Source of the DNA: a virus
Lineage: Duplodnaviria > Caudoviricetes
Reading direction: 5' to 3' (one strand)
Virus record (IMG/VR): IMGVR_UViG_3300020814_000535
Length of the DNA stretch: 64,000 nucleotides
Both the position numbers and the translations under genes were made by a program. Of the stretch, positions 963-62,965 are shown one piece after another; positions within the stretch are counted from its first letter, which is position 1; each line of letters opens with the position of its first letter. The notes under the pieces were generated by a model. It worked only from the letters and a program-made list of their open reading frames with translations. It was not told the origin of the DNA and searched no databases.

Positions 963-1014
963 AATTCAGGAATAAATTGGTTAAAAACAGGTAAGCGAAC
1001 ATAAGGAGAAAAAC

Positions 1015-1401: not shown

Positions 1402-1418
1402 GAAAACTAGGAGTTCTA

Positions 1419-2157: not shown

Positions 2158-2170
2158 GGAGAGTTTTTCA

Positions 2171-2401
2171 ATGAAGGCTACGGCTCGTATGGAGCAGTTG
2201 AAGCAGGCGCGCAAGCAATCTCGGATTAAGCCGGTGTCGTTGGTGGTGAAGGAAGAGAAAAGGCGGGAGTTTCTCCGGTACGAAGATGGCCAATTGGTCA
2301 TGTACGACCGCATTGGCAAGGAAGAAGATCAGGTTCGTCTGACACCCCAGGAAGTTGTCATCCTTCAACAGATGGAGAACGCAAGACAACGCCGCAACTA
2401 A
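2171..2401 (+). CDS. Hypothetical protein
   Basis: AAGGAG RBS, in operon context. Confidence 0.6.
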   Translation: MKATARMEQLKQARKQSRIKPVSLVVKEEKRREFLRYEDGQLVMYDRIGKEEDQVRLTPQEVVILQQMENARQRRN

Positions 2402-2499
2402 TGAGTAAAATTATTGAAACTCTGGGTGATCTCCAACACCTAGATGTTGTTTTAGGCGCCGCTTGGCTTGTGTTTTTATTCCTTAGTCTTTTTCTTTAA
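2401..2499 (+). CDS. 32-aa membrane peptide (not in ORF track)
   Basis: TAATG overlap with upstream stop; MSKIIETLGDLQHLDVVLGAAWLVFLFLSLFL. Confidence 0.5.
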   Translation: MSKIIETLGDLQHLDVVLGAAWLVFLFLSLFL

Positions 2500-2516
2500 G
2501 CTATCGAGGCAACTAG

Positions 2517-3929
2517 ATGCTGGTTGAGCTGAGCATCAAGGAAGACTACCGTCCAAATTGGGGTGTCCCCGAGGGGATTCGGGAGCTGGTCCAGAACTGC
2601 AAGGATGCCGACACCCAGTTTGCGGCGACTATGCACATTGAACACAGCGGCAAGAAGCTGGTTCTGACCAATGACTATGTAACGTTAGACCGCAAATCAC
2701 TCCTTCTCGGCATGACGACCAAGAAGAATGACGACGCGACGATTGGTCAATGGGGAGATGGGCTCAAGATTGGTTCGCTGGCCCTGGTCCGCAAGGGACG
2801 AAAGCTAAAGATTTTCACCAAGGACGAGATCTGGACGCCTGTCATCGTTGAATCCAGGCGCTACAAAGAAAAAGTATTAGCATTTCGGATCTCCAAGGCG
2901 AAGACGTGGATCGACAAGGTTCGGGTCGAAGTTGATCTTTCGAGCGAAGAATGGGGTCAATTAAGAAAGAATTTTCTATTTCTTTATGAAAATTTGAAGC
3001 AGGTGAGATCTTATGATGGGAACCTTTTGTACGAGGAGGGATTTGAAGGTCGAATCTATGTAAAGGATGTTTTTGTCTGCATCAATGACCACCTGGGTTT
3101 CGGGTACAATTTCAAGGATGTAGCCCTGGATGTGGATAGGCAAATTGTAGATACGTATTCTGCCAACTATCGAGCCCGCCACGTTGTGGCTTTGGCTTTC
3201 CGTTATTACAACGAGCTGTCTGAGGCTGACCAGGAGATTATCAGCAGAAAAACGATTGCCGCTTTGAATGATGTAACCGAAGATCTTCGATATCTGACAA
3301 GCTACGAGGTAACCTCCGAGTTCAGTGCGTTTACTTGCGAATGGTTTCTGAAGGTTTATGGGCAGTTGGCAAGACCTGCCCGAGACGAGGTCGAACGCAA
3401 GCGCCTGCAGAGCTTGGGTTATCAGCCGGTGTCCGTGAGCGCCCAGCTGAGCAATGTGTTGCGGGCCGAGTTCGGGACCACCGAGGAACTGGCGGAAGAG
3501 TTCTCCAAACAGCCAGAAAGAGAGTACCCTCTTTCAGAATTAAGTGAAATCGAGCAAGAGATTTTTGAATCGGCCCTTAATTTAACAAGCGTAGCCATCG
3601 AGGTATCGGGCAATCTTCCAGCTCAGTCTGTTGGCGACATGAAAGACTATCTTGATAACCGCAAGATCAAGATAGTTGACTTCAAGAGCGAGGGCGTCAA
3701 GGGAATTTTTGACAAGAAGAAAGAGGCTATTTTCATTGCTCGCCGAACCTTGAAGGATGGGAAAGACTTTCTCAATACACTCGTCCATGAGATTAGCCAT
3801 TTCACAGGAGCGGATGGAAGCCGCGAACACGTTGATACGATCCAGGAGATCATGGGAACGATGGTGATGTTGTTTGCTAACCGGCTTTACAAATATATTC
3901 TTAAAGAGAATATTCAGAAGGCCTCATGA
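2517..3929 (+). CDS. GHKL (HATPase_c) ATPase with C-terminal HExxH zincin-like motif
   Basis: EGIRELVQNCKDA (N box), LLLGMTTK, IGQWGDGLKIG (G boxes); LVHEISH near the C-terminus. Confidence 0.8.
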   Translation: MLVELSIKEDYRPNWGVPEGIRELVQNCKDADTQFAATMHIEHSGKKLVLTNDYVTLDRKSLLLGMTTKKNDDATIGQWGDGLKIGSLALVRKGRKLKIFTKDEIWTPVIVESRRYKEKVLAFRISKAKTWIDKVRVEVDLSSEEWGQLRKNFLFLYENLKQVRSYDGNLLYEEGFEGRIYVKDVFVCINDHLGFGYNFKDVALDVDRQIVDTYSANYRARHVVALAFRYYNELSEADQEIISRKTIAALNDVTEDLRYLTSYEVTSEFSAFTCEWFLKVYGQLARPARDEVERKRLQSLGYQPVSVSAQLSNVLRAEFGTTEELAEEFSKQPEREYPLSELSEIEQEIFESALNLTSVAIEVSGNLPAQSVGDMKDYLDNRKIKIVDFKSEGVKGIFDKKKEAIFIARRTLKDGKDFLNTLVHEISHFTGADGSREHVDTIQEIMGTMVMLFANRLYKYILKENIQKAS

Positions 3930-21814: not shown

Positions 21815-24800
21815 TTGCCTACAGAATCCTCGATCTCTGCAGTAGAAGCACTTCTATTCGATAACAACCTAAAGAAGACAAATATTACAGAGAAACTGGC
21901 CCAGAAAACGCTGGATTCTTTTAAAGATGATTTACTAGCCAGTTCGACGTTTCTCAAGAAATACGCTCTTCGGGATAAAGAAAACAATATTCACGAATGG
22001 ACTCTGGCGGAAGCTAAGCTTCGGTGGGCTACTGCGATTGCTGAAGTAGACAAGCGATTTTCAGACCCGCAGGATATCGATTATTTTCTAGAACTGTACG
22101 ACTACTTTCTTCCTGCAGGACGTCAGATGTTGGCTCTGGGAAACCCATACATCGAGAAAGCAACGTTAAATAATTGTTATACTTCTGCAGTAATGGAAGA
22201 TAGCTTGGAGGGCATTTTTGGTGTAGCGCTTGAGATTGCCAAGACGTTTAGTTATGCAGGTGGAGAGGGGATCAATTTAGCTCCTCTTCGTCCGAGAGAA
22301 GCGATTGTGTCGAATACTGCTGGGTCGAGTACGGGAAGTGTTTCTTTCGGCGAGATGTTCTCGTTTATTACGGGAATCATCGGGCAGTTTGGGAGACGTG
22401 GGGCTCTGATGTTGAGCCTGCCTGTTTGGCATCCAGATATTGAAGAGTTCATCACTGTTAAATCTTTAGACAAGAGCAGACTGAAGTTTGCCAACCTGTC
22501 TGTGATGATTGATGACGAATTTATGAGATGTGTCGAAAAGGACAGAGAATACACACTCTATTTCCAGACCAAGCACCAGGAGATCTGTCGCAAGGTCCGT
22601 GCCCGCGACATCTGGAATCTCATTATCAAGGCCGCCCATTCGTCGGCCGAGCCAGGAATTCTGTTCTGGGACCAAATCAAGAGAATGAGTTCGTCAGATA
22701 TTTATCCGGAGCTGTCTCTAACAGGGACCAATCCTTGTATTACAGGCGAAACTCTCGTCTATACTGCCGACGGAAGAGGAAATGTTCCAATCCGCCAATT
22801 AGCTGAAGAAGGAAAAGATGTTCCTGTTTTTTGTTTGGATAAAACAGATAAACCAACTGTCAGATATATGAGGAATCCCAGAATAACTGGTTTTAAACAA
22901 CCAGTTTACAAAGTAACTCTAGATGATGGCAGTGTTATTAGGACTACGTCTAATCATAAATTTTACCTTACGGAGGGCGGGGAGAAAACTGTAGATAAGT
23001 TGCAGATGGGGGACAGTTTGAAAATAGTTACTCGATTTGAATCAAGCATTAATGAAGTAGTTAAGGGTTATGAGGCAAAATCTCAGAATTATCTTTGGGT
23101 AAAGGTCGGTTGTCACACGGCTTATCCAGAACACAGACTTATTGCTGGCTTTCATTACAATGCCGATATGTCTCCCCAGGTTGGTCTAGTTGTCCATCAC
23201 CAAGACCATAATGGCAAAAACAATTTTCCCAGCAACTTGGTTGTGATGACCAAACAAGAACACGACAAAACTCACGTTTTAAAGATGTTTGGCGACAACA
23301 ATCCAATGCGACGTGCTCATGTGGAATGGGGCGCAAAGCAATGGGAATCTTATAGGCGAAAGCAGTCGGCTCGCTCGACTGGGAAGAGAAACAAGAATTG
23401 TAGTGGCGTTTCTAACGACGAATTAAAGCGACATGCTATTTTACTTACAAAGGAGGTTGGTCGCCGGTTCTCGACAAAAGAGTGGGCTATATACGCTAAC
23501 AGACATGGCTTGGTTGCTTATTTTAGCAAATGGAGAAACGATCACCTTGGAGGAGTAGTTGGATTGGCGAAGTGGGCGGCAATGGAATGCGGAATTGAAC
23601 ATTACGATTTAGAACCTCGCAAACAGAGAACCCTACAGACCCTTTCTTGCCAAGGTTATAATTGTATTGTCGAAAACAACGAAGTGTATGTGGTCAAAAA
23701 TTGCGAGATTTGTGGCTCGGAGTTTAAGGTGCAGCACGAGAGAAGAGAAGCGGGAATCTGTTTTTCTAGAGAGTGTCTACAGCAACATCTATCTAGGTCT
23801 CAAACCCCAGAATCTATAGAAAAAGCAAAAGCTGCAAGGTCTTCTACTCTAGTTAAACAAAAGAGCGACAATGCTATTAAGATGGTCAATGTATTTCTTA
23901 ATTTAAAGTTATCTTTAAAAAGAGCACCTACTTATAAAGAATTGAGCGTAGAGTGTAAGAAGCAAAATAAAAGACACAGGCTTGGAGTCCATAGCTATTT
24001 TAAAAACTATGCAGAGCTAAAAGAATTTGCCTCTACATATAACCACCGAGTAGTTTCAGTAGAATTTGATGGTTATGAGGATGTGTATAACGGTACAGTA
24101 GATGAGTTTCATAATTTCATGGTTGGAGGCTTTGAAGGAAAGGCTGCTTCTGGAAAGGCAAAATTTAGCTATTTAGTTAATCCTCAATGTGGAGAGCTAC
24201 CCTTGTCTCCACAGGAGTGTTGTTGTTTAGGATCGCTACTTCTAAACAAGTTTGTTTCGAAGCCTTTTTCTGCACTACAATCTTTTGACTACCAAAAGTT
24301 TACCCACATGGTAATAAGAGCAGTTAGACACTTGGACGACGTGGTTGAACTTGGGGCCTCGAAACATCCTCTGTTGGAACAATCTGAAAAAGCCCGCCTG
24401 GGACGTCGCATTGGACTTGGGGTTACGGGATTAGCTGATATGTTTGCCGCACTCGGCATGGAATATGATTGTCCTGACGCTCTAGTTGAAGAAGATCTTA
24501 TTTTTGAGATAAAGCGAAATTGGGAGACTTGTGCTTCTATTGACTTGGCTAAACAAAGAGGCTCATTTCCGCTTTTCAATAAAGACAAACATTACGAGCA
24601 GGGTTTTGCAGCAACGCTTCCTGATCTTATTAAAGAAGACGCAAAACTTCATGGCCAGCGCAATGTCGATATCGCCACAGTTGCCCCTAACGGATCCGTA
24701 GCCATTATTGCTCAAACAACCGGAGGCATTGAACCGATTTTTGCGCGGGAATACGAGCGAATTACAGAACTCGATGGAGTACGAAAGTCGTTCAAAGTGG

Positions 24801-25564
24801 TTCACCCTGGCATCCTGAGATACAAGGAAATTACAGGGAAGGACGCACCACCTGAACTATTCCCCACAGCTCATGAAATCAACTGGAGAGACCGAATCGA
24901 AGTGCAGTCTATTGCTCAGAAGTATACTGGGGCTTCTATTAGCAGCACCATTAATCTTCCAGAGAATACTTCAGTTGAGACCGTAGGAGAAATCTACCTC
25001 ACGGCCTGGAAGAGAGGACTCAAGGGAGTAACGGTCTATCGCGAAAATTCGCGGGAGGGAATTTTACTTGCGAAAACGGCCAAGAAAACTGAGGAGATCG
25101 ACACCGTCGTATATAAGCTTGTTGCCGAAGGTGGCGACAAGTTTTACATTCACATCTCCTACCGCGACCAAGACATCAAACAGCCCTACCAAATTTTTGT
25201 TACCAATTACAAGGCTAACGAAAATGATAGATTCAGAAAGCTCGCAGGGGACCTCGAAAGAGGATTGGATGTGCTGGATCGAGGAAAGCTCAACCAACAA
25301 CTTGAGAGAAGCAGAACATCTCTCGAACGAATCACAAGACTTGTATCTCTCGGGCTCAAAGAGGGACACCTTCAACTTTTGATTGAAATTCTAGAAAAAC
25401 ACTCTTTCGTTGGAACTCTCGCTTTTAACTTGCATTCTATCTTGAAAAAGAGTTACCTTGATAATAGTCAAATAGTTTGCACCAGTTGTGGTAGTTCAGA
25501 TCTAATTTTCACAGAAGGCTGTAGAACGTGTAAGTCTTGTGGGTATTCAAAATGCGGAGGATAA
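21815..25564 (+). CDS. nrdJ: Class II (B12-dependent) ribonucleotide reductase, intein-containing
   Basis: LNNCY, RRGALM, EPGILF, TNP/CGE, RRIGLG, APNGS, KGVTVYR, C-terminal EGCRTCKSCGYSKC. Confidence 0.95.
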   Translation: MPTESSISAVEALLFDNNLKKTNITEKLAQKTLDSFKDDLLASSTFLKKYALRDKENNIHEWTLAEAKLRWATAIAEVDKRFSDPQDIDYFLELYDYFLPAGRQMLALGNPYIEKATLNNCYTSAVMEDSLEGIFGVALEIAKTFSYAGGEGINLAPLRPREAIVSNTAGSSTGSVSFGEMFSFITGIIGQFGRRGALMLSLPVWHPDIEEFITVKSLDKSRLKFANLSVMIDDEFMRCVEKDREYTLYFQTKHQEICRKVRARDIWNLIIKAAHSSAEPGILFWDQIKRMSSSDIYPELSLTGTNPCITGETLVYTADGRGNVPIRQLAEEGKDVPVFCLDKTDKPTVRYMRNPRITGFKQPVYKVTLDDGSVIRTTSNHKFYLTEGGEKTVDKLQMGDSLKIVTRFESSINEVVKGYEAKSQNYLWVKVGCHTAYPEHRLIAGFHYNADMSPQVGLVVHHQDHNGKNNFPSNLVVMTKQEHDKTHVLKMFGDNNPMRRAHVEWGAKQWESYRRKQSARSTGKRNKNCSGVSNDELKRHAILLTKEVGRRFSTKEWAIYANRHGLVAYFSKWRNDHLGGVVGLAKWAAMECGIEHYDLEPRKQRTLQTLSCQGYNCIVENNEVYVVKNCEICGSEFKVQHERREAGICFSRECLQQHLSRSQTPESIEKAKAARSSTLVKQKSDNAIKMVNVFLNLKLSLKRAPTYKELSVECKKQNKRHRLGVHSYFKNYAELKEFASTYNHRVVSVEFDGYEDVYNGTVDEFHNFMVGGFEGKAASGKAKFSYLVNPQCGELPLSPQECCCLGSLLLNKFVSKPFSALQSFDYQKFTHMVIRAVRHLDDVVELGASKHPLLEQSEKARLGRRIGLGVTGLADMFAALGMEYDCPDALVEEDLIFEIKRNWETCASIDLAKQRGSFPLFNKDKHYEQGFAATLPDLIKEDAKLHGQRNVDIATVAPNGSVAIIAQTTGGIEPIFAREYERITELDGVRKSFKVVHPGILRYKEITGKDAPPELFPTAHEINWRDRIEVQSIAQKYTGASISSTINLPENTSVETVGEIYLTAWKRGLKGVTVYRENSREGILLAKTAKKTEEIDTVVYKLVAEGGDKFYIHISYRDQDIKQPYQIFVTNYKANENDRFRKLAGDLERGLDVLDRGKLNQQLERSRTSLERITRLVSLGLKEGHLQLLIEILEKHSFVGTLAFNLHSILKKSYLDNSQIVCTSCGSSDLIFTEGCRTCKSCGYSKCGG
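22736..24187 (+). mobile_element. Intein (484 aa) with HNH endonuclease; atypical C-terminus ...NPQ
   Basis: CITGET start after TNP, TTSNHKF, VHHQDHNGKNN..NL, DVYNGTVDEFHNF; ends VNPQ before the catalytic CGE. Confidence 0.93.
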
Positions 25565-30970: not shown

Positions 30971-31205
30971 TAACGTTCAGCCCGTAGAAGAAGAGCCAAA
31001 CGAGCGAGGGAGACCACGACTACATCCCAAGATTGCTACCGACAAGAAATGGGTGACGGCATTTTGCAATGACATTTCTTGGGACAATGGGTCAACTTTA
31101 CGGGTCCTGACAGAACCGAAATTAGTTCACGCCAGAAACATTTTCGACACATTTGAAGAAGCTCTCGCTGAGCGAGACAAGCTTCTAGCCTCACTTCCAG
31201 AATGA
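30900..31205 (+). CDS. Hypothetical protein (start uncertain)
   Basis: Ends in an ATGA overlap with the dnaE core. Confidence 0.5.
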   Translation: MSKEERKLKWLLWRGSLSIQPILDNVQPVEEEPNERGRPRLHPKIATDKKWVTAFCNDISWDNGSTLRVLTEPKLVHARNIFDTFEEALAERDKLLASLPE

Positions 31206-34200
31206 CAACAGAATTAGATCTCTACTTTCGTTACAGATGCGAGAAAGGTCTGCACGAGCGCGGGCTCGACCACCTTCCTGAATATGTTAAACAGCTCAAC
31301 TACGAAATCGACGTCATTATCAAGATGGGCTTTCCTGGCTACTTCCTGATTGTCTGTGACTTGTTGGAATGGGCTAGAAGTAAAAAGATCATAGCTGGGC
31401 CAGGCCGAGGGTGCCTTTCGGGCGATACGAAAGTTTTTTTAGACAAGGGAAAAGTCAAAAATATTAAAGATGTTAAGGTCGGCGAAAAGGTTATTTCCCA
31501 CACAGGAGACTTAAGGAATGTCATAAAAGCGTTTGAATATGACGTTGACGAGGCTCTTCTAAAAGTCAACACATACTATGGTGATTTTGGTGGTATAACA
31601 GCCACTAGTGATCATAGGATATTCGCACAAAAGGCAAAGCTTAATAAAGGATGGGAGGCTGCGAGTTCAACGGTAAGAAAGAATATGAGGCGTTGGCAGC
31701 ACCCAACAGACGAAATTTTCGAAGTACCTATTGGGGACCTAGAGGTTGGAGATTGGATTTTTACTCCGAAACCAAAGAGGGAAATTAAACCCCTTCCTAC
31801 TGGAATAGATTTTTCCCTATATTCTTATATTTGCAAATATAATATCGTTGTAGATAACGATCTTTTAATCGAGTACGTCCCAGTATCGAAAGCTTTTAAA
31901 TATTCAATTAGAGATGTAGTAAGAAATACTGGAGTAACGGGAAACTTTCTGAGAGGGCTTTTAAGATACCAAGGGGATCAAGATTCTTATGAGTCACATT
32001 GGTCTAAATCTTGGTCTAAGAAAAAGAGCGCTCAAGCTGTTGAGAAACTCAAAAGTTATGTTTTGCAAGAATTTTCGTCATTAAAAGAATGGTGCTCTTA
32101 TGCAAACGAAAGAAGATTTGTTAAAACTTCTATCGCAAAGTTCATTCCCTTTGACGACGATTTCTTGTGGCTCGTTGGGAAATGGACCGCAGATGGGTGG
32201 TTTAAAAAAGAGGGGAGCAGAGAATGGGGAATTTGTTTTAATAGCAACGAGGTTGATCAAATTTCTAGGGTTGAGGACTGGTTAACCAAGAACTCACTTG
32301 CCTACACCAAGAGAGATGGCTACAAAGGCAAAAAACTAGTTCAAATTCGTGTCAATTCGGGAATATTCTCCAAGTGGTGGAAAATACTTTTCGATAAATA
32401 CAGGTGTAGCTCTCAAACAAAACACTTTCCTTCGTTCGTTTTCTCGCTACCAGATGACAAGTTGAGAATAGTAATTAAAGGATACATGGACGGGGACGGC
32501 CACTATGGAGCAAACAAAAATAGAGCCACTACAACATCCTATATTTTGGCTTATCAACTAAGGTTTTTGTTACTAAGTCTTGGACTGCCATCCTCATTAC
32601 AGTATTCTATTCGCGAAGAAAAAAGGTGGATCTGTTTAAATCCAATAAGAGAAAGCTATGTGATAGATTTTCCCAAAAACGATGGAATTACAAAATATAA
32701 ATATCGATGGAGTCCTCATCCCGATGGAATTTGGACACAAATTTGGAAAATCGCAAAGGTTGTAGATAAAAAGAAGGTGTATGATATTTCGGTAGAAAAA
32801 GATTCTTCTTATCTAACCACCTCTGGCGTAGTACACAATAGCGTAGGCGGGTCTTTAGCTGCATACTCGTTACGTATCTCCCACGTCGATCCGATAAGGT
32901 ACAAACTTATCTTTGAGCGCTTTTTAAATCCAGACAGAGTTAGTATGTGTGACATTGATATGGACTATCCCGACGATCGGCGAGAAGAAGTCATAGAGTA
33001 TTTGGTCGACAAGTTCGGAGAAAACTCTGTCTCTCGTATTGGCACTTTTGGTACAATGAAAGCCAAGGGTGCTATTCGAGATATCACCCGTTGTTTAGGC
33101 TACGATTATGAAATTGGAGACAAACTCTCTAATCTTGTTCTTCCACCCGTCTCGGGCCAACCCCAATCCTTGGAAACTTGTTATGAGCAAGTTGCCGAAC
33201 TTAAGCAACTTCGCGATACTCCTGGGACTCCTGAAGCAGAAGTTCTTCGCTGGGCCGAAAGACTAGAAAATAGAATTCGCACTTCGGGAACTCACGCTTC
33301 CGGAGTTGTGATTTCAGAGGGGCCAGTTTACGAGCGAATCCCTCTGATGTTAGGGAAGGATAAAAAGCCAACCACCCAGTTTGAGATGAACAATGTTGAA
33401 GAGGTGGGGCTGATCAAGTTTGATATCTTGGGCCTAAAAGCTTTAACGACGGTAGATAGATGTTGCAAGCTTATTGAGCAAACTCGTGGCACCAAAATAG
33501 ATCCACTAGAAATCCCGCTGGATGACGAAGAAACGTTCGAGCTACTGTCTCGAGGAGAAACCGATGGAATTTTTCAACTTGAAGGATCTTCTGGACTCCA
33601 AGATCTGACGATCCGTTTAAGGCCCAGGTGTTTGGAAGACATCTCGCTTCTCGTGGCACTCTATCGTCCAGGGCCACTAGCAACAGGAATGGTAGACCAG
33701 GTGATTAAGGTTAGGAATCTGGAGGTGCAGGCAGAATATTATATTCCCGAATTAAGGCCAATTTTGGAGGAAACGGCTGGCTGTATCGTCTACCAGGAAC
33801 AGGCAATGCAAATTGCTAGAGACCTGGCTGGATATTCCATGGGTGAGGCGGACACGATGAGAAAAGCTATTGGTAAAAAGAAGGCGGCTCTGATGGAGGA
33901 GCAGCGAGTTAAGTTCGTTTCAGGAATGGTTACCAATGGTTTTGAGGAGGCGAAAGCCCAACGTCTCTTTGGCGAAATAGAAGGTTTTGCAGCTTACAGT
34001 TTTAATAGGAGCCATTCGCTAACTTACGGATATCTCGGATATATTACCGCCTACCTTAAAGCTCACTATCCTTCAGAGTTCATGTGCGCGTGCATGACTA
34101 CGGATTCGGATGAACCTGAAAAAGTAGTAAGGTATATCTCTTATTGCAAGTCTCATGGAATTGAGGTTTCACCTCCAGATGTGAATGCTTCCAGAGATTC

Positions 34201-35221
34201 TTTTACTGTAGATAAAAATGGGAAGATTTGTTTTGGTTTGGCGGCTATTAAAAATCTAGGGGCTGGACCAGTAAAGCTTATTGTCCGAGAGAGGGAAAGA
34301 GGCGGGGAGTTTGTTGATATATTTGATTTCTGCCGGCGTGTCGACAACTCCATTGTTAATTCTAAGAAGCTAGAGTCTCTGATTCTTTGCGGGGCGTTTG
34401 ATAAAGTCCATCAGGGAATGAATCGAACAGCTCTTCTGATGGCTATGGACGACGTCTGGAAGTACAAAGAAGAGATCAAACGTTATGAATCCAAGATGGA
34501 GACCTACAATAAACGGCTGGAAGCTTGGAATCAACGAGAAGAAGAGCGCAAGACGGGTGTAAAGAAGCCATCCCTCAAGTTTCCCGAGAAACCAGAGAAA
34601 CCTGGAGACCCAAAAATTCTCGAAGGTGTGCCGTCTATTCCTGTGCTCGAGAAGTTGAAACACGAACGAGAACTGTTGGGTTTTTATTTATCGGGCCATC
34701 CGGTGGAATTTGTTGAAAAAGTCTGGCACCGAAAGATTTGTGAATTAGGGGATAGCGGGCAAAACGAAGTAATCATTATTGCTGTCCCTACAATTATCAA
34801 GGAGCTTACGACACGCAGAAAAAAGGAAAGGATGGCTCAGCTTACTGTTGAGGACAACACGGGCTCGATGGAAGTCGTTGCTTTCCCGAAATCCTGGAGC
34901 AAGTTTGCTTCGACGATCGCCGAGGGGACCCCTCTGATTCTCGATATTAAAATGGAAGCAAATGACGAGGCTAGCGATCTAAAGAGAGGAATTCTCGTAG
35001 ACGCTAAACCAGCCCCTCTGAGTACGGCTGGACCAATGGAGCTAGTTATTTCTGTGGATGCGGTTCCACGGATGATAAATGCGCTGAAAGACAGCGAAAC
35101 AAACGATAACAAAGGAGAGATGTTCGACATAGTAATCAAAGCAAGATCTGGAGGAAGTTTGAAGTTGTCAGCTCGAGGAAAGATTGATCACCTCACCTTA
35201 ACGCGGCGGATGGGAGGGTAG
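31202..35221 (+). CDS. dnaE: DNA polymerase III alpha subunit catalytic core (palm/fingers/HhH/OB), intein-containing
   Basis: GFPGYFLIV, GPGRG/SVGGS, FERFLNPDR, CDIDMD, HASGVVI, KFDILGL, LYRPGP, FNRSH, OB domain. Confidence 0.96.
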   Translation: MTTELDLYFRYRCEKGLHERGLDHLPEYVKQLNYEIDVIIKMGFPGYFLIVCDLLEWARSKKIIAGPGRGCLSGDTKVFLDKGKVKNIKDVKVGEKVISHTGDLRNVIKAFEYDVDEALLKVNTYYGDFGGITATSDHRIFAQKAKLNKGWEAASSTVRKNMRRWQHPTDEIFEVPIGDLEVGDWIFTPKPKREIKPLPTGIDFSLYSYICKYNIVVDNDLLIEYVPVSKAFKYSIRDVVRNTGVTGNFLRGLLRYQGDQDSYESHWSKSWSKKKSAQAVEKLKSYVLQEFSSLKEWCSYANERRFVKTSIAKFIPFDDDFLWLVGKWTADGWFKKEGSREWGICFNSNEVDQISRVEDWLTKNSLAYTKRDGYKGKKLVQIRVNSGIFSKWWKILFDKYRCSSQTKHFPSFVFSLPDDKLRIVIKGYMDGDGHYGANKNRATTTSYILAYQLRFLLLSLGLPSSLQYSIREEKRWICLNPIRESYVIDFPKNDGITKYKYRWSPHPDGIWTQIWKIAKVVDKKKVYDISVEKDSSYLTTSGVVHNSVGGSLAAYSLRISHVDPIRYKLIFERFLNPDRVSMCDIDMDYPDDRREEVIEYLVDKFGENSVSRIGTFGTMKAKGAIRDITRCLGYDYEIGDKLSNLVLPPVSGQPQSLETCYEQVAELKQLRDTPGTPEAEVLRWAERLENRIRTSGTHASGVVISEGPVYERIPLMLGKDKKPTTQFEMNNVEEVGLIKFDILGLKALTTVDRCCKLIEQTRGTKIDPLEIPLDDEETFELLSRGETDGIFQLEGSSGLQDLTIRLRPRCLEDISLLVALYRPGPLATGMVDQVIKVRNLEVQAEYYIPELRPILEETAGCIVYQEQAMQIARDLAGYSMGEADTMRKAIGKKKAALMEEQRVKFVSGMVTNGFEEAKAQRLFGEIEGFAAYSFNRSHSLTYGYLGYITAYLKAHYPSEFMCACMTTDSDEPEKVVRYISYCKSHGIEVSPPDVNASRDSFTVDKNGKICFGLAAIKNLGAGPVKLIVRERERGGEFVDIFDFCRRVDNSIVNSKKLESLILCGAFDKVHQGMNRTALLMAMDDVWKYKEEIKRYESKMETYNKRLEAWNQREEERKTGVKKPSLKFPEKPEKPGDPKILEGVPSIPVLEKLKHERELLGFYLSGHPVEFVEKVWHRKICELGDSGQNEVIIIAVPTIIKELTTRRKKERMAQLTVEDNTGSMEVVAFPKSWSKFASTIAEGTPLILDIKMEANDEASDLKRGILVDAKPAPLSTAGPMELVISVDAVPRMINALKDSETNDNKGEMFDIVIKARSGGSLKLSARGKIDHLTLTRRMGG
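31412..32839 (+). mobile_element. Intein (476 aa) with LAGLIDADG endonuclease in the DnaE GRGS motif
   Basis: CLSGDT, ATSDHRI, LVGKWTADG and IKGYMDGDG, VYDISV...VVHN/S. Confidence 0.95.
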
Positions 35222-51569: not shown

Positions 51570-53594
51570 TTACTTAAAATTACTCAAATCATAATCGACC
51601 ATCCGATGAACTAGCGTCTTGAAATCAACCTCTGGCTTCCAACCGAGTTCCTGTCTTATTTTGGTGGAGTCGCCGATTAACACATCTACCTCTGCGGGGC
51701 GAAAGAATCGAGGATCGATCTTTACATACTGTTGGTAGTCTCCCAATCCAGCGTATTCAAAAGCTATCTCACAGAACTCTCTTACTGAGTGAGTTTCCCC
51801 AGAAGCTAGAACGTAATCCTTGGGTTCAGGAGATTTGGTCAACATCAGGATCTGCCCCTTACAAACGTCAGAAGCACAAGACCAATCTCTTTTGGCGTCT
51901 AGGTTTCCGAGAAAGATAAAATTCGTGCGCTTGTTCTTAATAGACGCAACACCAAGTGTAATCTTTCGGGTAACAAAGTTGGGGCCGCGCTTTCCTGGAG
52001 AATTAGATACAACCAAATTTCCTACGCCAGCCATCAATTTTCCGCTTTCGGTTTCTACATTGAAAACAAAAGTATGTTCGTTGTCTCTTGTAAAAGAGAA
52101 TTTCTTCTTCAATATATCTGTTTCTTTTTTTGCAAAACCACGCCCTTCGTGCAAGTCAGAATGCAGATTCACTTGATAATACAGTCTGTCTCGTTGTTCA
52201 AACTTATTGATATTAAAAGTTTGTCCCGTTATGTTTTGAACCAAGAACAATAACCCTTGACAAAGAAGAGCGGAATTACTTTTAAATGACTTAAACTCAT
52301 ACACGCAGGAATCTTTTTTGAGACCATCGCCAGCGTAGTATCCCCTAAAAAATGCTAATTGAACTTCTTTGGTAGCATTTAGAATAATAGAGGGCACCTT
52401 CTTGTGTTTTGTATTTTTGTCGTAAAGCTCCTTTCTCAGGAAGTCTTTCTGCTCCTTCGGAATCCCATTGACGCAAATACGCTCACTAGAAGAATTTTCA
52501 AACCCAGATTCTCCAATTCTCTTCACAAAGGTCACATCGCAAAAACACTTTTTTGTAATTTCAATAAAATATTGTTGTAAATCTGGGTCGATATTTGAGA
52601 AGCCCACATCGTGAGAGTCTTCTGCGATGTGGCCTTCTGAAGTCAACATTCCTAAGAATTCTGCAAAAGGAAGAGACATCTCCTTGGCATTAATGTGAGG
52701 TGGAAAAGTTCCAAGCTTAAGTATGTCTCCTTCGGAAAGATTAAAACACTCCGTTTTCTCTTCCGTCTGTAATATCATTTTGTGATTAGGCGTTACATCT
52801 ACACACCCACCCCGACAGTTCACAATCTCTCTAGACTGATACTTTTCCTCTAATGTTTTAATTTTTCTTTTTGATACAAGAATCAATTTAACAAACTTTT
52901 CTCCATCCCAAATTTCAGTATCTGCTTCTGAATAATCTTTTTCCTTATATAAAATATCCGATTTATTTGTTACCAAAGATGAAACGTAAACGATGTCAAT
53001 ATCTTCTTTATTTCGCCTAATAATAATAGGCGTGTCAGGAAAGAAACACTCATGGTTAAAAGAAATGCTATTACAAGCAAAAATCTTATATGATTCTCTA
53101 TAGTTTACACATGCCCAGAATCCAAAAAGTTTTGCTACCCCATACGGACTTCTTGGATGAAAAGGAGATTCCTCATTGCAAAGGTTGTCAGACATCCCTC
53201 CAAACAATTCGCTTGTGCTGGCCTGAAGAAATTTTGTATGAATGCCTGACTGTCGAATAGCTTCAAGGCAATTGATAACACCCACGCCGGTTACTTCGGC
53301 AGTAAAAATAGGTTGTTCAAAGGAAGTTCCAACGTGGGATTGTGCAGCTTCATTAAAAAAGAGATCAGCTTTCGCTAATTTACACAACCTCAATAAGCTT
53401 GGTAGGTCCGTCAAATCGCCTTCAACTACCTCGAGATTCTTGTTTCCCTCGAGATTTGCGGCGCAACCCAAATCCAACCCACGAGACGAACGCCTGATAA
53501 AACCAAAGACTTTGTATCCATCTTTCAATAGTAGTTCAGCCAGGATACTTCCATCCTGTCCTGTTAGACCAGTAACAATAGCTGTTTTCTGCAA
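51570..53594 (-). CDS. gmd: GDP-mannose 4,6-dehydratase, intein-containing
   Basis: TGLTGQDGS, AAQSHV..SF, QASTSELFG, PRSPYGVAK, FNHE/SP, FVTRKI, LGNLDAKRDW. Confidence 0.95.
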   Translation of the reverse strand: MQKTAIVTGLTGQDGSILAELLLKDGYKVFGFIRRSSRGLDLGCAANLEGNKNLEVVEGDLTDLPSLLRLCKLAKADLFFNEAAQSHVGTSFEQPIFTAEVTGVGVINCLEAIRQSGIHTKFLQASTSELFGGMSDNLCNEESPFHPRSPYGVAKLFGFWACVNYRESYKIFACNSISFNHECFFPDTPIIIRRNKEDIDIVYVSSLVTNKSDILYKEKDYSEADTEIWDGEKFVKLILVSKRKIKTLEEKYQSREIVNCRGGCVDVTPNHKMILQTEEKTECFNLSEGDILKLGTFPPHINAKEMSLPFAEFLGMLTSEGHIAEDSHDVGFSNIDPDLQQYFIEITKKCFCDVTFVKRIGESGFENSSSERICVNGIPKEQKDFLRKELYDKNTKHKKVPSIILNATKEVQLAFFRGYYAGDGLKKDSCVYEFKSFKSNSALLCQGLLFLVQNITGQTFNINKFEQRDRLYYQVNLHSDLHEGRGFAKKETDILKKKFSFTRDNEHTFVFNVETESGKLMAGVGNLVVSNSPGKRGPNFVTRKITLGVASIKNKRTNFIFLGNLDAKRDWSCASDVCKGQILMLTKSPEPKDYVLASGETHSVREFCEIAFEYAGLGDYQQYVKIDPRFFRPAEVDVLIGDSTKIRQELGWKPEVDFKTLVHRMVDYDLSNFK
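52002..53048 (-). mobile_element. Intein (349 aa) with LAGLIDADG endonuclease in the Gmd NHES motif
   Basis: CFFPDT, VTPNH, FLGMLTSEG / FFRGYYAGDG; ends VVSN/S. Confidence 0.92.
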
Positions 53595-53649: not shown

Positions 53650-54342
53650 CTAGAAAGTAAACTCAGGATGGGGAGCAATGCCGACGATTGGGTTGTCGGA
53701 TAGCTGGATCGTTTTGGTGTTACCGGCCGATTCTAAGACTAGGGTACCGTCGCCATATCCAACAATGAAGCCTGTTTTCAATTCGACACAAGAAGTTATA
53801 GTTTGTTCTCTACGTCTACCTCTATATGAAATTTCGGCCAAAGAAGAAATGTTAAAATATGCCATTCCTGCAAGATTTGTATCTAAGTTAACTTTAGACA
53901 AACACCCATTAGCTTTGATCAACACATTCGGAGGCACAACGTCCAAGATCTCACCAGGAAGGCTGCCCAAATCTTTCAGCAGATAGAACTCTCCCCACGG
54001 GTTGAGATAGAAGACTTTCTTGTTCCCGCCGGAAACAACTAAAGTCCCTCCGTCAGTTGGATGGATAGCTTTAATATCCCAGCAGTCGAAATACTTGTAG
54101 GCAGCTTGGATATCGAGTGTGTCGGCATTAAGCCTGACCACGGCATTGCCAAATGCCACCCAAATTGCATTGTTAAAAAAGGCGCAGCCGACTATCTCGT
54201 AATGCGGATTTATTCCTCCAAGAAATGGGAAGTCTAAAAGTTTCCGAGAAATCGGCCAACCACTAAAATCCCAGCAGATCACCTCTCCCGGATACATATT
54301 TGAAGGAGCAAACTTTGTTGCTACATAAATCCTATTACTCAT
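53650..54342 (-). CDS. Beta-rich (possible propeller) hypothetical protein
   Basis: Repeated short beta strands, GYGDGT blade-like motif. Confidence 0.5.
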   Translation of the reverse strand: MSNRIYVATKFAPSNMYPGEVICWDFSGWPISRKLLDFPFLGGINPHYEIVGCAFFNNAIWVAFGNAVVRLNADTLDIQAAYKYFDCWDIKAIHPTDGGTLVVSGGNKKVFYLNPWGEFYLLKDLGSLPGEILDVVPPNVLIKANGCLSKVNLDTNLAGMAYFNISSLAEISYRGRRREQTITSCVELKTGFIVGYGDGTLVLESAGNTKTIQLSDNPIVGIAPHPEFTF

Positions 54343-56561
54343 CGCAAATTACTCAAAAATACTTTAATATTCTCAAACTCAGCATCAAAATCAACAATCT
54401 GTTTAAACCTCTTATAAGCATTCTCACACATCTTTCTGTGGTTATCTGGTTGAGAAAAGAAACGAATCAATTGAGAGTTTTCGTGAATTGAACGTCTGGA
54501 GATATCGATGCAGGTGGAACCGTCAATAAGAAGAGGTTCGGCTAGCTTGCCTTTATAGTAATTTACTTTCATAAAAGCAGGGCGTCCGACAGCATAGGCA
54601 TTATGAAGGCTATTGCCCGTCACAACCGGGATCCCATTTCTTCTTGTAACAACCAATGAGTTGGGGACAGTCACGCAATAAACCATCCCTTTGTAGGAGA
54701 CCAATTTATAAGGCTCAAACAGCTTTCTTTTTGTCAGAAGATGAGAATAACTTGGGCTTAATTCTGTGCTTATACTCAAACTCCAGAGATATTGTTTCCC
54801 AATATTTACAGGGTTCTTTCTCCTCATCCGAGAGCGAAGGCCTAGTTTAATTGCTATCTCTTGCAAGCTATCTGCCATTCTTTTGGAAGAAATGCTTATT
54901 GTAATAGCGGTAGATTTCCCCTTTTGGATCTTATTAATTCCGTCCTCTTGAGCAACAGAATCTATTCGTTTGAATCTACACATCTTTTCCTCACCACCCG
55001 ACCTTTGATCGATAGTTCCGTCTCCAAGGGTAAAAGCTTCAAGGAAGCTCCATAATATCTCGCGGTTCCCGTTAAGAATTTCCGGGGGAATAAATTTGTC
55101 GTAACATTTTCCATATTCCTTAAAAACGTCATACAACTCCTTGCTTCCAACCCATAAGCGATAAACCTGCTTCTTAGGGCAAGGATCTCCGTTTTTGCGA
55201 TAGAGCTGTCTTTTTCTTTCCATAGAACATTTTGATATGGAACTATTTGTATAGCCTAAACTATTCAGAAGTTTTTGAACCTCTTCAATATACTGAAAGT
55301 TTGTATTGTCTATTATAACTGCGTGAGCGCCCTCTTTGGCCTCGCCAGTGATCCTGCTTTTGTAATTAGTTTTCTTGACACAACCTTCTGCTAAATACCA
55401 GCCAAGGAAGCGGGCTTTTTCTATAGAGCAGGTGTTTCCGCCCTTCCATTCGTCAGCAGCTACCTTGAATCCAACTCTTTTACGAGGAGACCGACTTATA
55501 TAATTTAGATCTTTGGCCTCTTTGAAACGCCATCCTTTAGAGGAACTGTCGTCGGCATATTCTTCAATCCACATTCGATGGTTCGGGGTTACCAATACAT
55601 CCATGATTCGACTATCAAAATGACACATATCTCCTTTGTATTCGAAGGCATGATAAGCGGTTGGTTGCTGATATTGCAGTTCTCCTGTTTTCTGGTTTAG
55701 AGTGGCAACCTTGTCTTTTGGATTTAACTCGGGGAACAACTTCCAGCCGGAATCCGTAAGCACTTCAGTGTCTTCTGAGTGACAGTGGCCCATTCCGTCC
55801 CCCTCCGGCTTCGTGCTGTAAAACCATCCCATTTCCCTGCATGCATCTGCTATATCTCCCATGTAACACAAATCATATTCCATCCCCGCTCCGTACGTCT
55901 TAAACTCAAATTCAGGAAGAGCCTGCTTGTAAGCTCGGTGGAGTTCCATCTCTCTCATGTAGTGGATGAACGAGTAGACCTTGTTGTGGCTTGTCGGCGG
56001 TTCGTAACGAAAGACGTCCAGGTCGAATTCCTGGTGATAATAACAAACATTAATATCTGGAGGCACTGCGAACGGAGCTGTAGATGCCAGGATATTCTTT
56101 ACACCAGGCAGATGTCCCCAGGCATTCCCCACTTGGAAGATATGTTTCGCTTGCGGCTGAAACTGGGCAATAAGATTATTGTAAATAGGAATATGGGAAG
56201 GTACGGAAGAAATAATGATATCAAACTTTGTCTCTTTGAACTTCTCTAGAGTAATCCCTCTGTGGACCTTTTTAGTAGAAGGATCTTCGATGTAATAAAT
56301 ACCGTCTTCTACTGTGTAATGGTCGTTTAGCTTCATGCGTTCCGGGAGGAGGAAACCATGTACATCTCTTTTGAAGCACTGCTCTAGGGTCAAGTATTGT
56401 CTGGCCGTGCTTTCGTGTACTCCTGGATAAAGTTGCCAGTAGCCTTGTTGATGCCATTCAATACCTGCTGGACGATAAAGTTCGCAGTTCAGTCGTTTCT
56501 CAAAGAGAAGTTGAAGAGAATAAAAGAGCGCACAATGATGAAGATCTGCAAAAACTTTCAT
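54339..56561 (-). CDS. GT-B (GT4-like) glycosyltransferase, intein-containing
   Basis: Spliced motif KPEGDGMGH/SLHNAYAVGRP, LIDGSTC, MCENAY..F; cluster context. Confidence 0.75.
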   Translation of the reverse strand: MKVFADLHHCALFYSLQLLFEKRLNCELYRPAGIEWHQQGYWQLYPGVHESTARQYLTLEQCFKRDVHGFLLPERMKLNDHYTVEDGIYYIEDPSTKKVHRGITLEKFKETKFDIIISSVPSHIPIYNNLIAQFQPQAKHIFQVGNAWGHLPGVKNILASTAPFAVPPDINVCYYHQEFDLDVFRYEPPTSHNKVYSFIHYMREMELHRAYKQALPEFEFKTYGAGMEYDLCYMGDIADACREMGWFYSTKPEGDGMGHCHSEDTEVLTDSGWKLFPELNPKDKVATLNQKTGELQYQQPTAYHAFEYKGDMCHFDSRIMDVLVTPNHRMWIEEYADDSSSKGWRFKEAKDLNYISRSPRKRVGFKVAADEWKGGNTCSIEKARFLGWYLAEGCVKKTNYKSRITGEAKEGAHAVIIDNTNFQYIEEVQKLLNSLGYTNSSISKCSMERKRQLYRKNGDPCPKKQVYRLWVGSKELYDVFKEYGKCYDKFIPPEILNGNREILWSFLEAFTLGDGTIDQRSGGEEKMCRFKRIDSVAQEDGINKIQKGKSTAITISISSKRMADSLQEIAIKLGLRSRMRRKNPVNIGKQYLWSLSISTELSPSYSHLLTKRKLFEPYKLVSYKGMVYCVTVPNSLVVTRRNGIPVVTGNSLHNAYAVGRPAFMKVNYYKGKLAEPLLIDGSTCIDISRRSIHENSQLIRFFSQPDNHRKMCENAYKRFKQIVDFDAEFENIKVFLSNLR
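54612..55784 (-). mobile_element. Intein (391 aa) with LAGLIDADG endonuclease
   Basis: CHSEDTEVLT..GW, VTPNHRM, FLGWYLAEG / FLEAFTLGDG, VYCVTVP...RRNG...TGN/S. Confidence 0.93.
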
Positions 56562-61000: not shown

Positions 61001-62965
61001 CTAAATCTTAGACTCAAGAAAAGCTTTCCACGCATACTTAATCATATCTTTGTCAAAATGATGGATAGCCGATTCTCTTCCCTTTTGACCAATCTGTCGG
61101 GCAAACTCTTGGTCATTAAGAAGGAGCTGAATGTACATTCTCAACTCTTCTTTGCTATCAGAAACAAATCCATCTACTCCATTGGTAATCAAGCGGGGGA
61201 TTTCGTAGAGGTTGTGGCCAGCAAAATAACTCGCATTCCCTTTCTCAGGGCCAATAGCTACAATAGGGATACCCGAGTTATGGACTATAAATCCTTCGGC
61301 TCGATAGACTCCGTCTTTTGTTGAAAGATTATATACTCTTCCTTGAAATGGCTTTCTGGTAACAGATTTAATCCTCTTTGGTTTAATGTTCTTATCTTGG
61401 TCAAGCAATCTATTTCGTATTGAGAGTAAGCTGTCCTGTACTTCTGATTCAATCTGCTCTTGATGAAACCAATCAAAATTCCACATTGCTCTTTTTTTAT
61501 CAAGAGACAAGGATGCAATGCCTCCAACAAGTTCAACATCTTTAAGCCCTTCAACCAGAATTCGAAACTTACTTTTCGTCTCTGAAAAAACTCGTTCGAC
61601 CTCTTTGAAATCCCCTGGTTGGCTGTCTCGAATTTCTTCCCAAGCCACTTCGTTAAACATTGATCTGTATTTGTTATCTGCAAAATCGGGACTATTTTTC
61701 TGCGTTTTTTGTCCACCTTGAAGGACAGCGTCCCCTCCCCATCTATGATGCCTGCTAAGTAAGAGATCTCGCATGGCGTCATAGAAAATTCCAGAGGTTT
61801 GAAAGTAATCGAGTTCTGGCGTTTTAAACCCTCTGTTCTGAACTTCATCGTTATTGACCAATAACTCCTGTTCGGGAGCAAAGGCATCAATTCGTTCATC
61901 GGTTTTTTGTAATTCTCTAGCAATATCTCCAATTCTTCTTTTGTCCACTGAGTCACAATTAGCCTCCTGGTATTGATAGATACTATCTAGTATACCAAGA
62001 TTCTGCGCTTCTACAAAACCTCTTTGTGTCAAAAAAGGATGAGTTGGCGTACACGAAACGGATTGGCCATCCTCTGTAACAATTGTCAGCAAATCTCCTT
62101 TGTACTCCTTGATTAAAACATCTTCTATTTCGGTGTCAGAACTCACTAAAGTTTCTTCCGGAAAACACATCCAAGCCTCCATAAAATTCAGCGTGTAACT
62201 AGCTGGATGAGTTCCTGTGTAGAAATAAACTCTATTGCTATTCATCTCTTTCCTGAGATCGTCGTATTCGAGCTTGCCGCCCCAGAAAGGAATCCCGTCA
62301 TTACCGGGTCCATAGAGAACTCGATTGAATGGCCGAGTCACATCTTCAAAGAATGTGTAATTGCACGCGGCATCTCGAATCTGCATCGACTGACAAAAAG
62401 TTACGACCCGTTCTTTCTCTCCCGTCCAAGGTCCATATTCAGCAGGATCTTTGCCAAAACGAATAAAAGCATCCTGTCCAATAAAGCCAGGAATGTTTGC
62501 TTCCATCGGCGAGTAACGAACAACCTGCATTCCTCGTTCTCTGTAGGGACGCATGGTGTTTTCCGTGCTAGCTACAGACTGACCAATTGTTCGCCAGATA
62601 ACTCTCTTGTGTCTAATATTGACCCAATTCTCTGTAATGTATTTAGGCACATGCATTGCGATAATGACATCAAACTTATCTGCAATCTCTCTCGTAATAT
62701 AGGTTTTGCCGTCTTGTCCTGGACGAGCTTCCTCAAGCTTTTGCCACATCTCAACCATTTCGGGATCATACTGGAGATCTGGCATTGGAGGCCGCATGCC
62801 ACCTCCACCCGTAGCTGGATGCCAATAAGCTCCAGGGGAGAAAACCTCGTATCCCAATTCTCGAAAGATTCTTAACTCGTCATACTCGAGAATGGAATGA
62901 CAAGACAGATAAAGAATCTTCAATGGTTTGCTCCTAAGAATTTTTCTTTTGATTTTCATTCGCAA
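61001..62965 (-). CDS. GT-B (GT4-like) glycosyltransferase, intein-containing
   Basis: Spliced motif LNFMEAWM/SGIPIV, LITNGVDGF, IGQKGRE.A. Confidence 0.82.
   Translation of the reverse strand: MRMKIKRKILRSKPLKILYLSCHSILEYDELRIFRELGYEVFSPGAYWHPATGGGGMRPPMPDLQYDPEMVEMWQKLEEARPGQDGKTYITREIADKFDVIIAMHVPKYITENWVNIRHKRVIWRTIGQSVASTENTMRPYRERGMQVVRYSPMEANIPGFIGQDAFIRFGKDPAEYGPWTGEKERVVTFCQSMQIRDAACNYTFFEDVTRPFNRVLYGPGNDGIPFWGGKLEYDDLRKEMNSNRVYFYTGTHPASYTLNFMEAWMCFPEETLVSSDTEIEDVLIKEYKGDLLTIVTEDGQSVSCTPTHPFLTQRGFVEAQNLGILDSIYQYQEANCDSVDKRRIGDIARELQKTDERIDAFAPEQELLVNNDEVQNRGFKTPELDYFQTSGIFYDAMRDLLLSRHHRWGGDAVLQGGQKTQKNSPDFADNKYRSMFNEVAWEEIRDSQPGDFKEVERVFSETKSKFRILVEGLKDVELVGGIASLSLDKKRAMWNFDWFHQEQIESEVQDSLLSIRNRLLDQDKNIKPKRIKSVTRKPFQGRVYNLSTKDGVYRAEGFIVHNSGIPIVAIGPEKGNASYFAGHNLYEIPRLITNGVDGFVSDSKEELRMYIQLLLNDQEFARQIGQKGRESAIHHFDKDMIKYAWKAFLESKI
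61277..62167 (-). mobile_element. Intein (297 aa) whose central region carries an out-of-frame endonuclease gene
   Basis: CFPEETLV, CTPTHPFLT.RG, VYNLST...Y.AEGFIVHN/S; no endonuclease motif in its own frame. Confidence 0.9.
61285..61956 (-). CDS. Single-motif LAGLIDADG homing endonuclease with N-terminal Myb/SANT-like HTH, nested in the +1 frame inside the intein
   Basis: AGGAGG-6 nt-GTG start; WTKEELEIL..RS..SI; YLAGIIDGEG; ITNTD; HPCLLIKKEQ. Confidence 0.88.
   Translation of the reverse strand: MTQWTKEELEILLENYKKPMNELMPLLPNRSYWSITMKFRTEGLKRQNSITFKPLEFSMTPCEISYLAGIIDGEGTLSFKVDKKRRKIVPILQITNTDQCLTKWLGKKFETANQGISKRSNEFFQRRKVSFEFWLKGLKMLNLLEALHPCLLIKKEQCGILIGFIKSRLNQKYRTAYSQYEIDCLTKIRTLNQRGLNLLPESHFKEEYIIFQQKTESIEPKDL

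Follow-up and report, generated by a model that had tools for sequence, protein, structure and literature searches.

A phage glycosyltransferase intein with a putative single-motif LAGLIDADG endonuclease gene in its +1 frame

We analyzed 64,000 nucleotides of DNA (the window) from the virus record IMGVR_UViG_3300020814_000535 (Duplodnaviria; Caudoviricetes); the full record, of which the window is a part, is 188,653 bp long and carries direct terminal repeats. A glycosyltransferase gene at positions 61,001 onward is interrupted by an intein, and the DNA that encodes the center of this intein also holds, in the +1 frame, a second open reading frame (ORF) with homing endonuclease gene (HEG) features. 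The coordinates of all features are collected in Table 1. An initial annotation made from the letters alone had described the intein, the +1 ORF, its Shine-Dalgarno (SD) motif, its GTG start and its single LAGLIDADG motif, and all of these were recovered at the same positions when the sequence was rechecked.

The host gene encodes an enzyme whose extein fold matched the GT4 enzymes PimA and BshA. Its frame is open from TTG 62965, so that the mechanical ORF is 61001..62965 on the minus strand. This was the gene given in the initial annotation; the frame was right, whereas the start was probably not. The true start is most likely TTG 62923, located 7 nt past an AGGAG motif and giving a product of 640 aa. 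Glycosyltransferase homologues begin at MKILYLS, the equivalent of TTG 62923, and the database protein P0062 (640 aa) is identical to the product from this codon and has the same length. The first 14 codons of the mechanical ORF (the 62921..62965 stretch) are probably untranslated. The intein is inserted within the conserved GT-B donor-binding motif (EAxx-xGxP, with the hyphen marking the junction here and below).

The splicing part of the intein was examined with Pfam and by comparison with related inteins. The window intein scored 38.9-41.7 bits against Intein_splicing (PF14890), compared to a cut-off of 35.8. Its Cys1 codon is located at 62167..62165, and Cys1 is kept in all seven related inteins. 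The catalytic residues are present in every member, the +1 residue being S, T or C, and Cys1, TxxH, the terminal HN and the +1 nucleophile are kept across members at approximately 25% intein identity. The region between the two splicing blocks has a different character. In an AlphaFold2 (AF2) model of the full precursor, residues 356-460 of this linker had predicted local distance difference test (pLDDT) values of 27-35, and linker hydrophobicity was below, and charge above, that of both the HEG and the extein. The HEG stop, TAG 61285..61287, is located inside the codons of the FIVHN block (glycosyltransferase codon 561 of 563), confirming that the second gene ends within the C-terminal splicing block of the first.

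The 223-aa product of the +1 ORF was compared with sequence and structure databases. It matched PHROG 5046 over residues 60-188 (E 8e-15), a family whose label reads 'HNH', and its best match by sequence in the PDB was I-MsoI (E 1e-4). An AF2 model built from a 64-sequence alignment had a pLDDT of 90.2 and showed one alpha-beta-beta-alpha-beta-beta-alpha core at residues 61-150. The top Foldseek matches of this model were I-CreI, I-CvuI and I-MsoI (probability 1.0; template modeling score by target 0.65-0.73). The HEG of one relative described below (L011) remained below the threshold of Pfam LAGLIDADG (19.6 bits vs 22.5), and PF14528 or PF00961 matches are precomputed for several other HEG relatives. 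The N-terminal domain had been called a Myb-like helix-turn-helix (HTH); three helices were indeed predicted, whereas the match to Pfam Myb_DNA-bind_6 was below threshold (E 0.074). Its W-T-x-E-E...L...LPxR pattern is common to free-standing relatives. On the basis of these models, the +1 ORF is a genuine endonuclease gene of the single-motif LAGLIDADG type with a predicted I-CreI-like fold, and its product presumably acts as a homodimer.

Relatives were found by searches with the intein region and then with the whole protein, and the DNA of the homologous loci was inspected. The same +1 geometry was present in six assemblies from different projects, namely the window, four phage-like contigs and one archaeal metagenome-assembled genome (MAG). 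Two contigs, L007 (Logan) and L008 (ENA), carry orthologs of the glycosyltransferase that are 66% and 55% identical over the intein region, with +1 HEG ORFs of 220 and 222 aa, respectively. A third ortholog, on the 62-kb JGI contig L011, is only 36% identical and has a +1 HEG ORF of 227 aa, and contig L010 (ENA) carries a +1 HEG ORF of 204 aa in a different GT4 host at a homologous site, EAxx-TGxP. The archaeal member, L014, is located in Candidatus Terraquivivens tikiterensis (NDWU01000039.1), where a GT4-like gene (914..3100) is interrupted at a different site, MDI-CDLYF, by an intein of residues 282-609. Its HEG is listed with 241 aa and spans 2034..2732 (233 aa) from the ATG at 2034; the HEG stop is located two codons ahead of the intein end, and neither of the two overlapping frames had a stop, compared to 33 in the third. 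The contig may represent an archaeal virus or a provirus. The inteins of L011 and L014, like that of the window, scored above the Pfam splicing-domain cut-off.

Each of the six members has its HEG in phase +1, with 22-33 stops in the third frame and none in the intein frame, which is one continuous ORF in the window and in all relatives, unlike in split inteins. HEG identity among members falls to 28-31%. HEG and linker identities were 73/60%, 68/49%, 56/37% and 31/24%, the HEG being the higher in 10/10 pairs, and global alignment of L010 with L011 gave a score of 152 for the HEG and -32 for the linker. The DNA of this lineage has a GC content of approximately 32-45%, with approximately 41% in the window phage.

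A seventh copy, L012 (Logan SRR5574655 contig, 1334..1804), is a 157-residue mini-intein in an orthologous glycosyltransferase at the site EAxM-CGIP. Its +1 ORF (1527..1757, 76 aa) joins the HEG helical domain to the C-tail, and the LAGLIDADG core is gone. The nuclease core was lost through a deletion that kept both frames open. In addition, the majority of the glycosyltransferase homologues are intein-less; more than 100 of them, with approximately 340 aa, matched the query in two stretches, one to residue 266 and the other from after 563, which adjoin precisely at the site of insertion. Two of these, P0065 and P0067, read EAFM/EAWM-TGIP across the junction that is EAWM-(S/T)GIP in the interrupted genes. 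To judge from these sequences, the intein-less glycosyltransferase alleles are potential homing targets.

The HEG itself has relatives of another kind. Proteins approximately 30% identical over 87% of its length have the same helical domain and a single LAGLIDADG motif and are encoded by stand-alone genes, in agreement with the initial view that a separate HEG of the free-standing single-motif type is present. One of them, P0003 in L002 (4001..4768), stands alone among other genes and is set off by intergenic spacers of its own. P0003 has two tandem N-terminal W-x-x-x-E...LPxR domains ahead of the LAGLIDADG core; the putative DNA-binding module of the HEG family is, by this pattern, duplicated in some members. 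Another protein, P0001, is a fragment of 130 aa that has 76% identity with the HEG. Searches with back-translated patterns found no close HEG relatives in IMG/VR or JGI metagenome contigs, a blastn search of GenBank phages with the gene was likewise without a match, and tblastn of the HEG against GenBank phages gave only a 28%-identical gene of Sphingobium phage Lacusarx.

The openness of the two frames was compared with chance expectation. Both frames were stop-free over 224 codons, and the third frame contained 27 stops. In the chance model, the HEG protein was fixed, and synonymous codons were drawn at the frequencies seen in 33 long ORFs from the window. Under these conditions, the intein frame was expected to contain 20.2 stops, and the probability that it has none was approximately 1.7e-12. 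When the intein-frame peptide was fixed, the probability of an open +1 frame was approximately 5e-4. Among the 33 reference ORFs, open stretches in the other frames reached 96 and 116 codons at the longest, compared to 224 in the overlap. The initial annotation had put chance openness near 1e-5; openness beyond chance was borne out, and the figure was conservative. At the GC content of the window phage, a frame would be open by accident much less readily than in GC-rich phages, and the purge of stops is statistically stark because the background is low in GC.

Codon choice in the HEG agreed with this result. A stop in the intein frame requires a T-ending HEG codon ahead of a codon starting with AA, AG or GA. 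T-ending codons made up 0/74 in these risk contexts of the window HEG, compared to 26% of its other codons (Fisher p 3e-8). In the six embedded HEGs taken together, T before AAN, AGN or GAN occurred in 0/383 cases, whereas it occurred in 136/448 cases in eight free-standing relatives. Elsewhere in the same genes, the embedded HEGs had 18-30% T (Fisher p 2e-4 to 5e-9 each). In the eight free-standing relatives, the frame that corresponds to the intein frame held 14-21 stops; a GC-rich gene described below (L027) was the only exception. These results support the view that the intein frame is held stop-free by selection, and the proposal that it had been purged of stops was upheld by this comparison.

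Substitution patterns were examined in a codon alignment of the window, L007 and L008. In the exteins and the N-terminal part of the intein, divergence followed the order pos3>pos1>pos2 in the glycosyltransferase frame. In the overlap, the first position of this frame, which is the third position of the HEG, changed fastest, with 0.35-0.45 differences per site vs 0.15-0.23. The periodicity switched at residues ~337 and ~541, between which the conserved part of the HEG extends. Observed differences were then classed against all possible single changes. Changes that altered the linker but were silent in the HEG were 2.2-2.4x enriched, those that altered the HEG but were silent in the linker were at 0.8-0.96x, and those that altered both were at 0.55x. 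The periodicity and the substitution classes support purifying selection on the HEG as a protein, with the linker mainly kept open. The homologue check proposed in the initial annotation, namely openness of both frames in relatives together with purifying selection in the +1 frame, gave a positive result.

The linker may not be entirely free. Among HEG-altering changes, linker-silent ones were approximately 1.7x better tolerated than linker-altering ones. Because the linker-silent class exceeds the doubly non-synonymous class, there are hints of either a weak constraint on the linker peptide or a position-specific mutation effect. The second-longest invariant block of the gene, 32 nt, is inside the overlap. 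It encodes CGILIGFIKSR, a conserved helix, in the HEG frame and the Trp-rich MWNFDWFHQEQ in the intein frame, and the Trp-rich peptide is partly kept in L010. This invariance may reflect dual protein constraint or a nucleotide-level element. Synonymous divergence was 0.43-0.46 in the N-terminal part of the intein and 0.56-0.65 in the exteins. Recent horizontal transfer of the intein is not claimed from this gap, since most of it vanishes without the invariant 36-nt block described next.

The longest invariant run in the gene, a 36-nt block with all 12 wobble positions fixed, lies directly 5' of the HEG start. The same hairpin was predicted from it in all three relatives, with the 3' arm reaching into the SD motif (z -1.7 to -2.0). 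The SD motif is retained as AGGAG(G/A) in the window, L007 and L008. The start codon is GTG in the window and an ATG 3 nt downstream in L007, and both are present in L008. An ATG or GTG is found 3-10 codons ahead of an invariant Trp in 7/7 copies. A sigma-70 promoter scan found none at the HEG start, and the overall counts were equal to those of shuffles. Hairpins that occlude the ribosome-binding site regulate phage HEGs in T4-like phages. Internal initiation appears to be the most economical reading of HEG expression.

These findings suggest the following explanation, to which we assign a probability of about 0.82: the locus is a dual-coded intein with a separate HEG in the +1 frame that homes via intein-less alleles. 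The glycosyltransferase mRNA would be read in frame 0 through the 297-residue intein, with two Hint half-domains linked by a disordered linker of approximately 200 residues in place of an endonuclease domain. Protein splicing at EAWM-SGIP would restore a GT-B enzyme of approximately 343 residues. The same DNA, read one base downstream, would be expressed as a separate gene from the internal SD and GTG to give the I-CreI-like endonuclease. As a homodimer, this enzyme would cut intein-less glycosyltransferase alleles of co-infecting relatives, and repair would copy the intein and the HEG into the cut allele. Over 61285..61956, purifying selection acts on the HEG amino-acid sequence, and the intein frame is absolutely barred from stops, with constraint on the linker weak at most. 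Internal initiation, splicing, dimerization and cleavage of the empty site are steps that we infer.

Several observations weigh against this explanation. The window HEG had no Pfam LAGLIDADG match (E<=1). A strong SD motif was found only in the clade of the window, L007 and L008, and no obvious SD was found ahead of the start codons at the equivalent position in L010, L011 and L014, whose initiation mechanism may be different or weak. The upstream hairpin was only modestly above shuffles and lacked covariation because the 36-nt block is invariant. Finally, the precursor model was built from 10 sequences, so that low confidence in the linker is weaker evidence than it appears.

Other readings of the same data were compared with this one. 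The endonuclease might be made by +1 ribosomal frameshifting, as an N-extein-IntN-HEG fusion ending at the TAG in the C-terminal block. An SD-like AGGAGG in a translated ORF can stimulate frameshifting, as in prfB and dnaX, and here such a motif is inside the translated ORF, three relatives are without an obvious SD at the start codon, and the invariant block with its possible hairpin is just upstream. Frameshifting nevertheless seems unlikely: a start codon is kept in every copy despite its shifting type and position, a TAG 11 codons upstream closes the +1 frame in the window clade, the short stretch that this leaves has no slippery or stop-codon shift site, and the free-standing relatives begin at the same protein point. 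We consider it very improbable that the +1 ORF is a relic that died only recently and is open for that reason, with only the glycosyltransferase-intein frame functional. The homing-cycle model holds that HEGs in inteins commonly decay, and L012 shows decay within this lineage, but the +1 frame is open and alignable down to the lowest identities in six assemblies, the periodicity and substitution classes indicate purifying selection on it, the catalytic motif is invariant, and the HEG model is confident.

A further reading concerns the insert as a whole, which might remain unspliced and be tolerated as a surface loop of the glycosyltransferase. An element of this type in phage ShiLan has an out-of-frame HEG in a stop-free insertion without splicing domains (PMC11855218). 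A Hint domain above the Pfam threshold, with complete and conserved catalytic residues, makes the same outcome quite improbable here, and a loop of approximately 300 residues in the GT-B donor-binding motif is unlikely to be harmless. An assembly or sequencing artefact, in which two compensating indels shift an ordinary in-frame endonuclease domain, has nothing in its favor beyond being possible a priori, and its probability is practically negligible: the same +1 geometry occurs in six independent assemblies from different projects, and a HEG that is really in frame would not account for a 'wrong' frame free of stops (P~1e-9 to 1e-12 per genome).

The dual-coded intein with its own HEG had also been proposed to be a passing intermediate between other kinds of intein. 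The relatives argue against this proposal, as the layout persists to the lowest HEG identities observed, in three insertion contexts and on phage-like as well as archaeal contigs. Judged from these sequences, the dual-coded arrangement looks like a stable state. More tentatively, and with considerable doubt, it may be a long-lived mobile composite in which the intein and its +1 HEG travel as one unit, having diverged to <30% HEG identity and moved among three or more contexts of insertion in GT-B genes of phages and an archaeon; within the window clade, the 36-nt hairpin and the SD motif would gate the HEG, coupling its initiation to translation of the host gene. The origin of such composites is a related question. 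One-step invasion at approximately 40% GC should kill the host gene, because a typical free-standing HEG brings 14-21 stops. A free-standing HEG relative in a Chloroflexi MAG of 70% GC (L027, 2450..2914) had 0 stops in the intein-equivalent frame because of its GC-rich composition. L027 suggests a GC-rich route of capture in which the read-through frame across the HEG is open by chance. Composites could have been born in GC-rich genomes and then carried to AT-richer ones under anti-stop selection.

Besides the glycosyltransferase intein, at least five other inteins are located within the 64-kb window, each with its endonuclease domain in frame (Table 1). Dual coding was found only in the glycosyltransferase intein among the inteins of the window, and the HEG is present in one copy in the genome. 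The intein density of this phage genome is unusually high.

Table 1. Positions of the glycosyltransferase gene, its intein, the +1-frame HEG and the other intein-bearing genes of the window
Feature	Positions	Strand	Basis or remark
GT-B (GT4-like) glycosyltransferase gene, intein-interrupted	61001..62923	-	ORF, homologues, fold match
Class-1 intein, 297 residues: Cys1, TPTHPF block B, terminal VHN, +1 Ser	61277..62167	-	
N-terminal splicing region, single-coded, normal codon periodicity in the glycosyltransferase frame	61957..62167	-	divergence pos3>pos1>pos2
In-frame read-through linker over the HEG, ~200 residues, stop-free, poorly conserved, predicted disordered	61346..61957	-	
C-terminal splicing region (VYNLST...GFIVHN), contains the HEG stop	61277..61345	-	alignment; glycosyltransferase periodicity back at ~residue 541
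+1-frame HEG, 223 aa: N-terminal three-helix (Myb/SANT-like) domain and one LAGLIDADG core	61285..61956	-	
SD AGGAGG (61963..61968), spacer 6 nt, GTG start (61954..61956)	61954..61968	-	sequence
Invariant 36-nt block directly 5' of the HEG start, hairpin possible	61964..61999	-	three-way gene alignment (window/L007/L008)
Putative DNA-binding three-helix domain, HEG residues 4-44	61825..61947	-	helices 6-14, 20-26, 32-41, pLDDT >90
Single LAGLIDADG motif YLAGIIDGEG with catalytic acidic residue	61732..61761	-	D72, G73, E74, G75 invariant in 64 sequences
Second-longest invariant block, 32 nt, inside the overlap	61454..61485	-	all three codon positions fixed, window/L007/L008
Intein-bearing AAA ATPase gene, HNH	17482..20037		in-frame endonuclease domain
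Intein-bearing ribonucleotide reductase gene, HNH_3	21815..25564		in-frame endonuclease domain
Intein-bearing DNA polymerase III alpha gene, LAGLIDADG_3	31202..35221		in-frame endonuclease domain
Intein-bearing GDP-mannose 4,6-dehydratase gene	51570..53594		two LAGLIDADG-like motifs visible in translation
Intein-bearing ORF for an unassigned 740-aa protein, LAGLIDADG_3	54339..56561		in-frame endonuclease domain

The initial annotation knew of no described case of this arrangement. Such cases have been reported. The proposal that inteins hold endonuclease homologues out of frame goes back to Gorbalenya (1998), as that work is cited in two preprints (10.64898/2026.09.14.751524 and 10.1101/2025.01.02.630785), and both preprints describe inteins with out-of-frame HEGs. 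In the first, a cyanobacterial dnaX intein carries a LAGLIDADG homing endonuclease in an overlapping '+2 ORF' (Phillips, DeSimone & Gogarten, bioRxiv 10.64898/2026.09.14.751524). It resembles the window in that the in-frame region is predicted to be disordered and the alternative-frame protein is predicted to have a LAGLIDADG fold, in the putative SD motifs upstream of the endonuclease start, in the low omega of the HEG frame with a relaxed intein frame, and in the side-by-side occurrence of full-intein, mini-intein and intein-less alleles. A secondary invasion of a mini-intein was proposed as its origin (10.64898/2026.09.14.751524). The hosts differ, being a GT-B glycosyltransferase of phages and an archaeon in the window family and a bacterial clamp-loader subunit in dnaX. 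The enzymes also differ: the window HEG is a single-motif I-CreI-like type with a three-helix domain and known free-standing relatives, whereas no ancestor of the dnaX enzyme could be identified and the model of that enzyme was overlaid on I-WcaI. No cyanobacterial locus was found among the 80 best genomic relatives of the window HEG in a single-motif scan.

The second preprint describes actinobacteriophage inteins whose homing endonucleases are antisense LAGLIDADG, antisense VSR-like or frame-3 EndoVII-like (bioRxiv 10.1101/2025.01.02.630785). Like the window, these have the endonuclease in another frame and an in-frame segment without recognizable structure; their origin was argued to be a free-standing endonuclease invading an intein, and automated annotation was reported to miss inteins of this kind (10.1101/2025.01.02.630785). 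In these GC-rich phages, the hosts are DNA polymerase, minor capsid, terminase and thymidylate synthase genes (10.1101/2025.01.02.630785), in contrast to the sense-strand +1 LAGLIDADG gene, the glycosyltransferase host and the GC content of approximately 41% in the window.

More distant parallels were also considered. In fractured genes (Dassa et al. 2009, PMC2677866), a HEG of the free-standing type with its own start and stop is located at the intein endonuclease position, as in the window, but the host is split into two ORFs joined by trans-splicing, whereas the frame is continuous in six members of the window family. Such genes bear on the model 'splicing domain first, HEG later' (PMC2677866). 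The ShiLan methylase insertion shares with the window an in-frame, stop-free insert with a GTG-started out-of-frame gene, an HNH gene in that case, whose stop is at the insertion end; it has no detectable splicing domains, whereas the window has a complete Hint domain with catalytic residues (PMC11855218). I-CreI, I-MsoI and I-CvuI have one LAGLIDADG motif per chain and the same core fold as the window HEG. These three enzymes come from group I introns and lack an additional N-terminal domain; the window HEG has a helical domain of approximately 55 residues, is located in a shifted frame of an intein and is only 15-19% identical to them.

The element of the window belongs to a known but rare kind, the intein with an out-of-frame HEG. 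The GT-B host family, the HEG subtype that combines a helical domain with an I-CreI-like core, the depth of conservation and the low-GC background are new. The lineage is unusually clean, with six diverged members, free-standing relatives, empty alleles and a decayed mini-intein, and at GC contents of approximately 32-45% a 224-codon double-open stretch cannot be accidental. It can be used directly to study how inteins became mobile under the 'splicing domain first, endonuclease later' model. Two selective regimes act on one DNA, one on a protein sequence and the other on a frame that merely stays open, and the linker indicates that a Hint domain can accommodate approximately 200 arbitrary residues where an endonuclease would otherwise sit. 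The HEG represents a new HTH-fused, I-CreI-like scaffold. With an endonuclease dose that would be set by its own ribosome-binding site and not by the host protein, the lineage provides a testable case.

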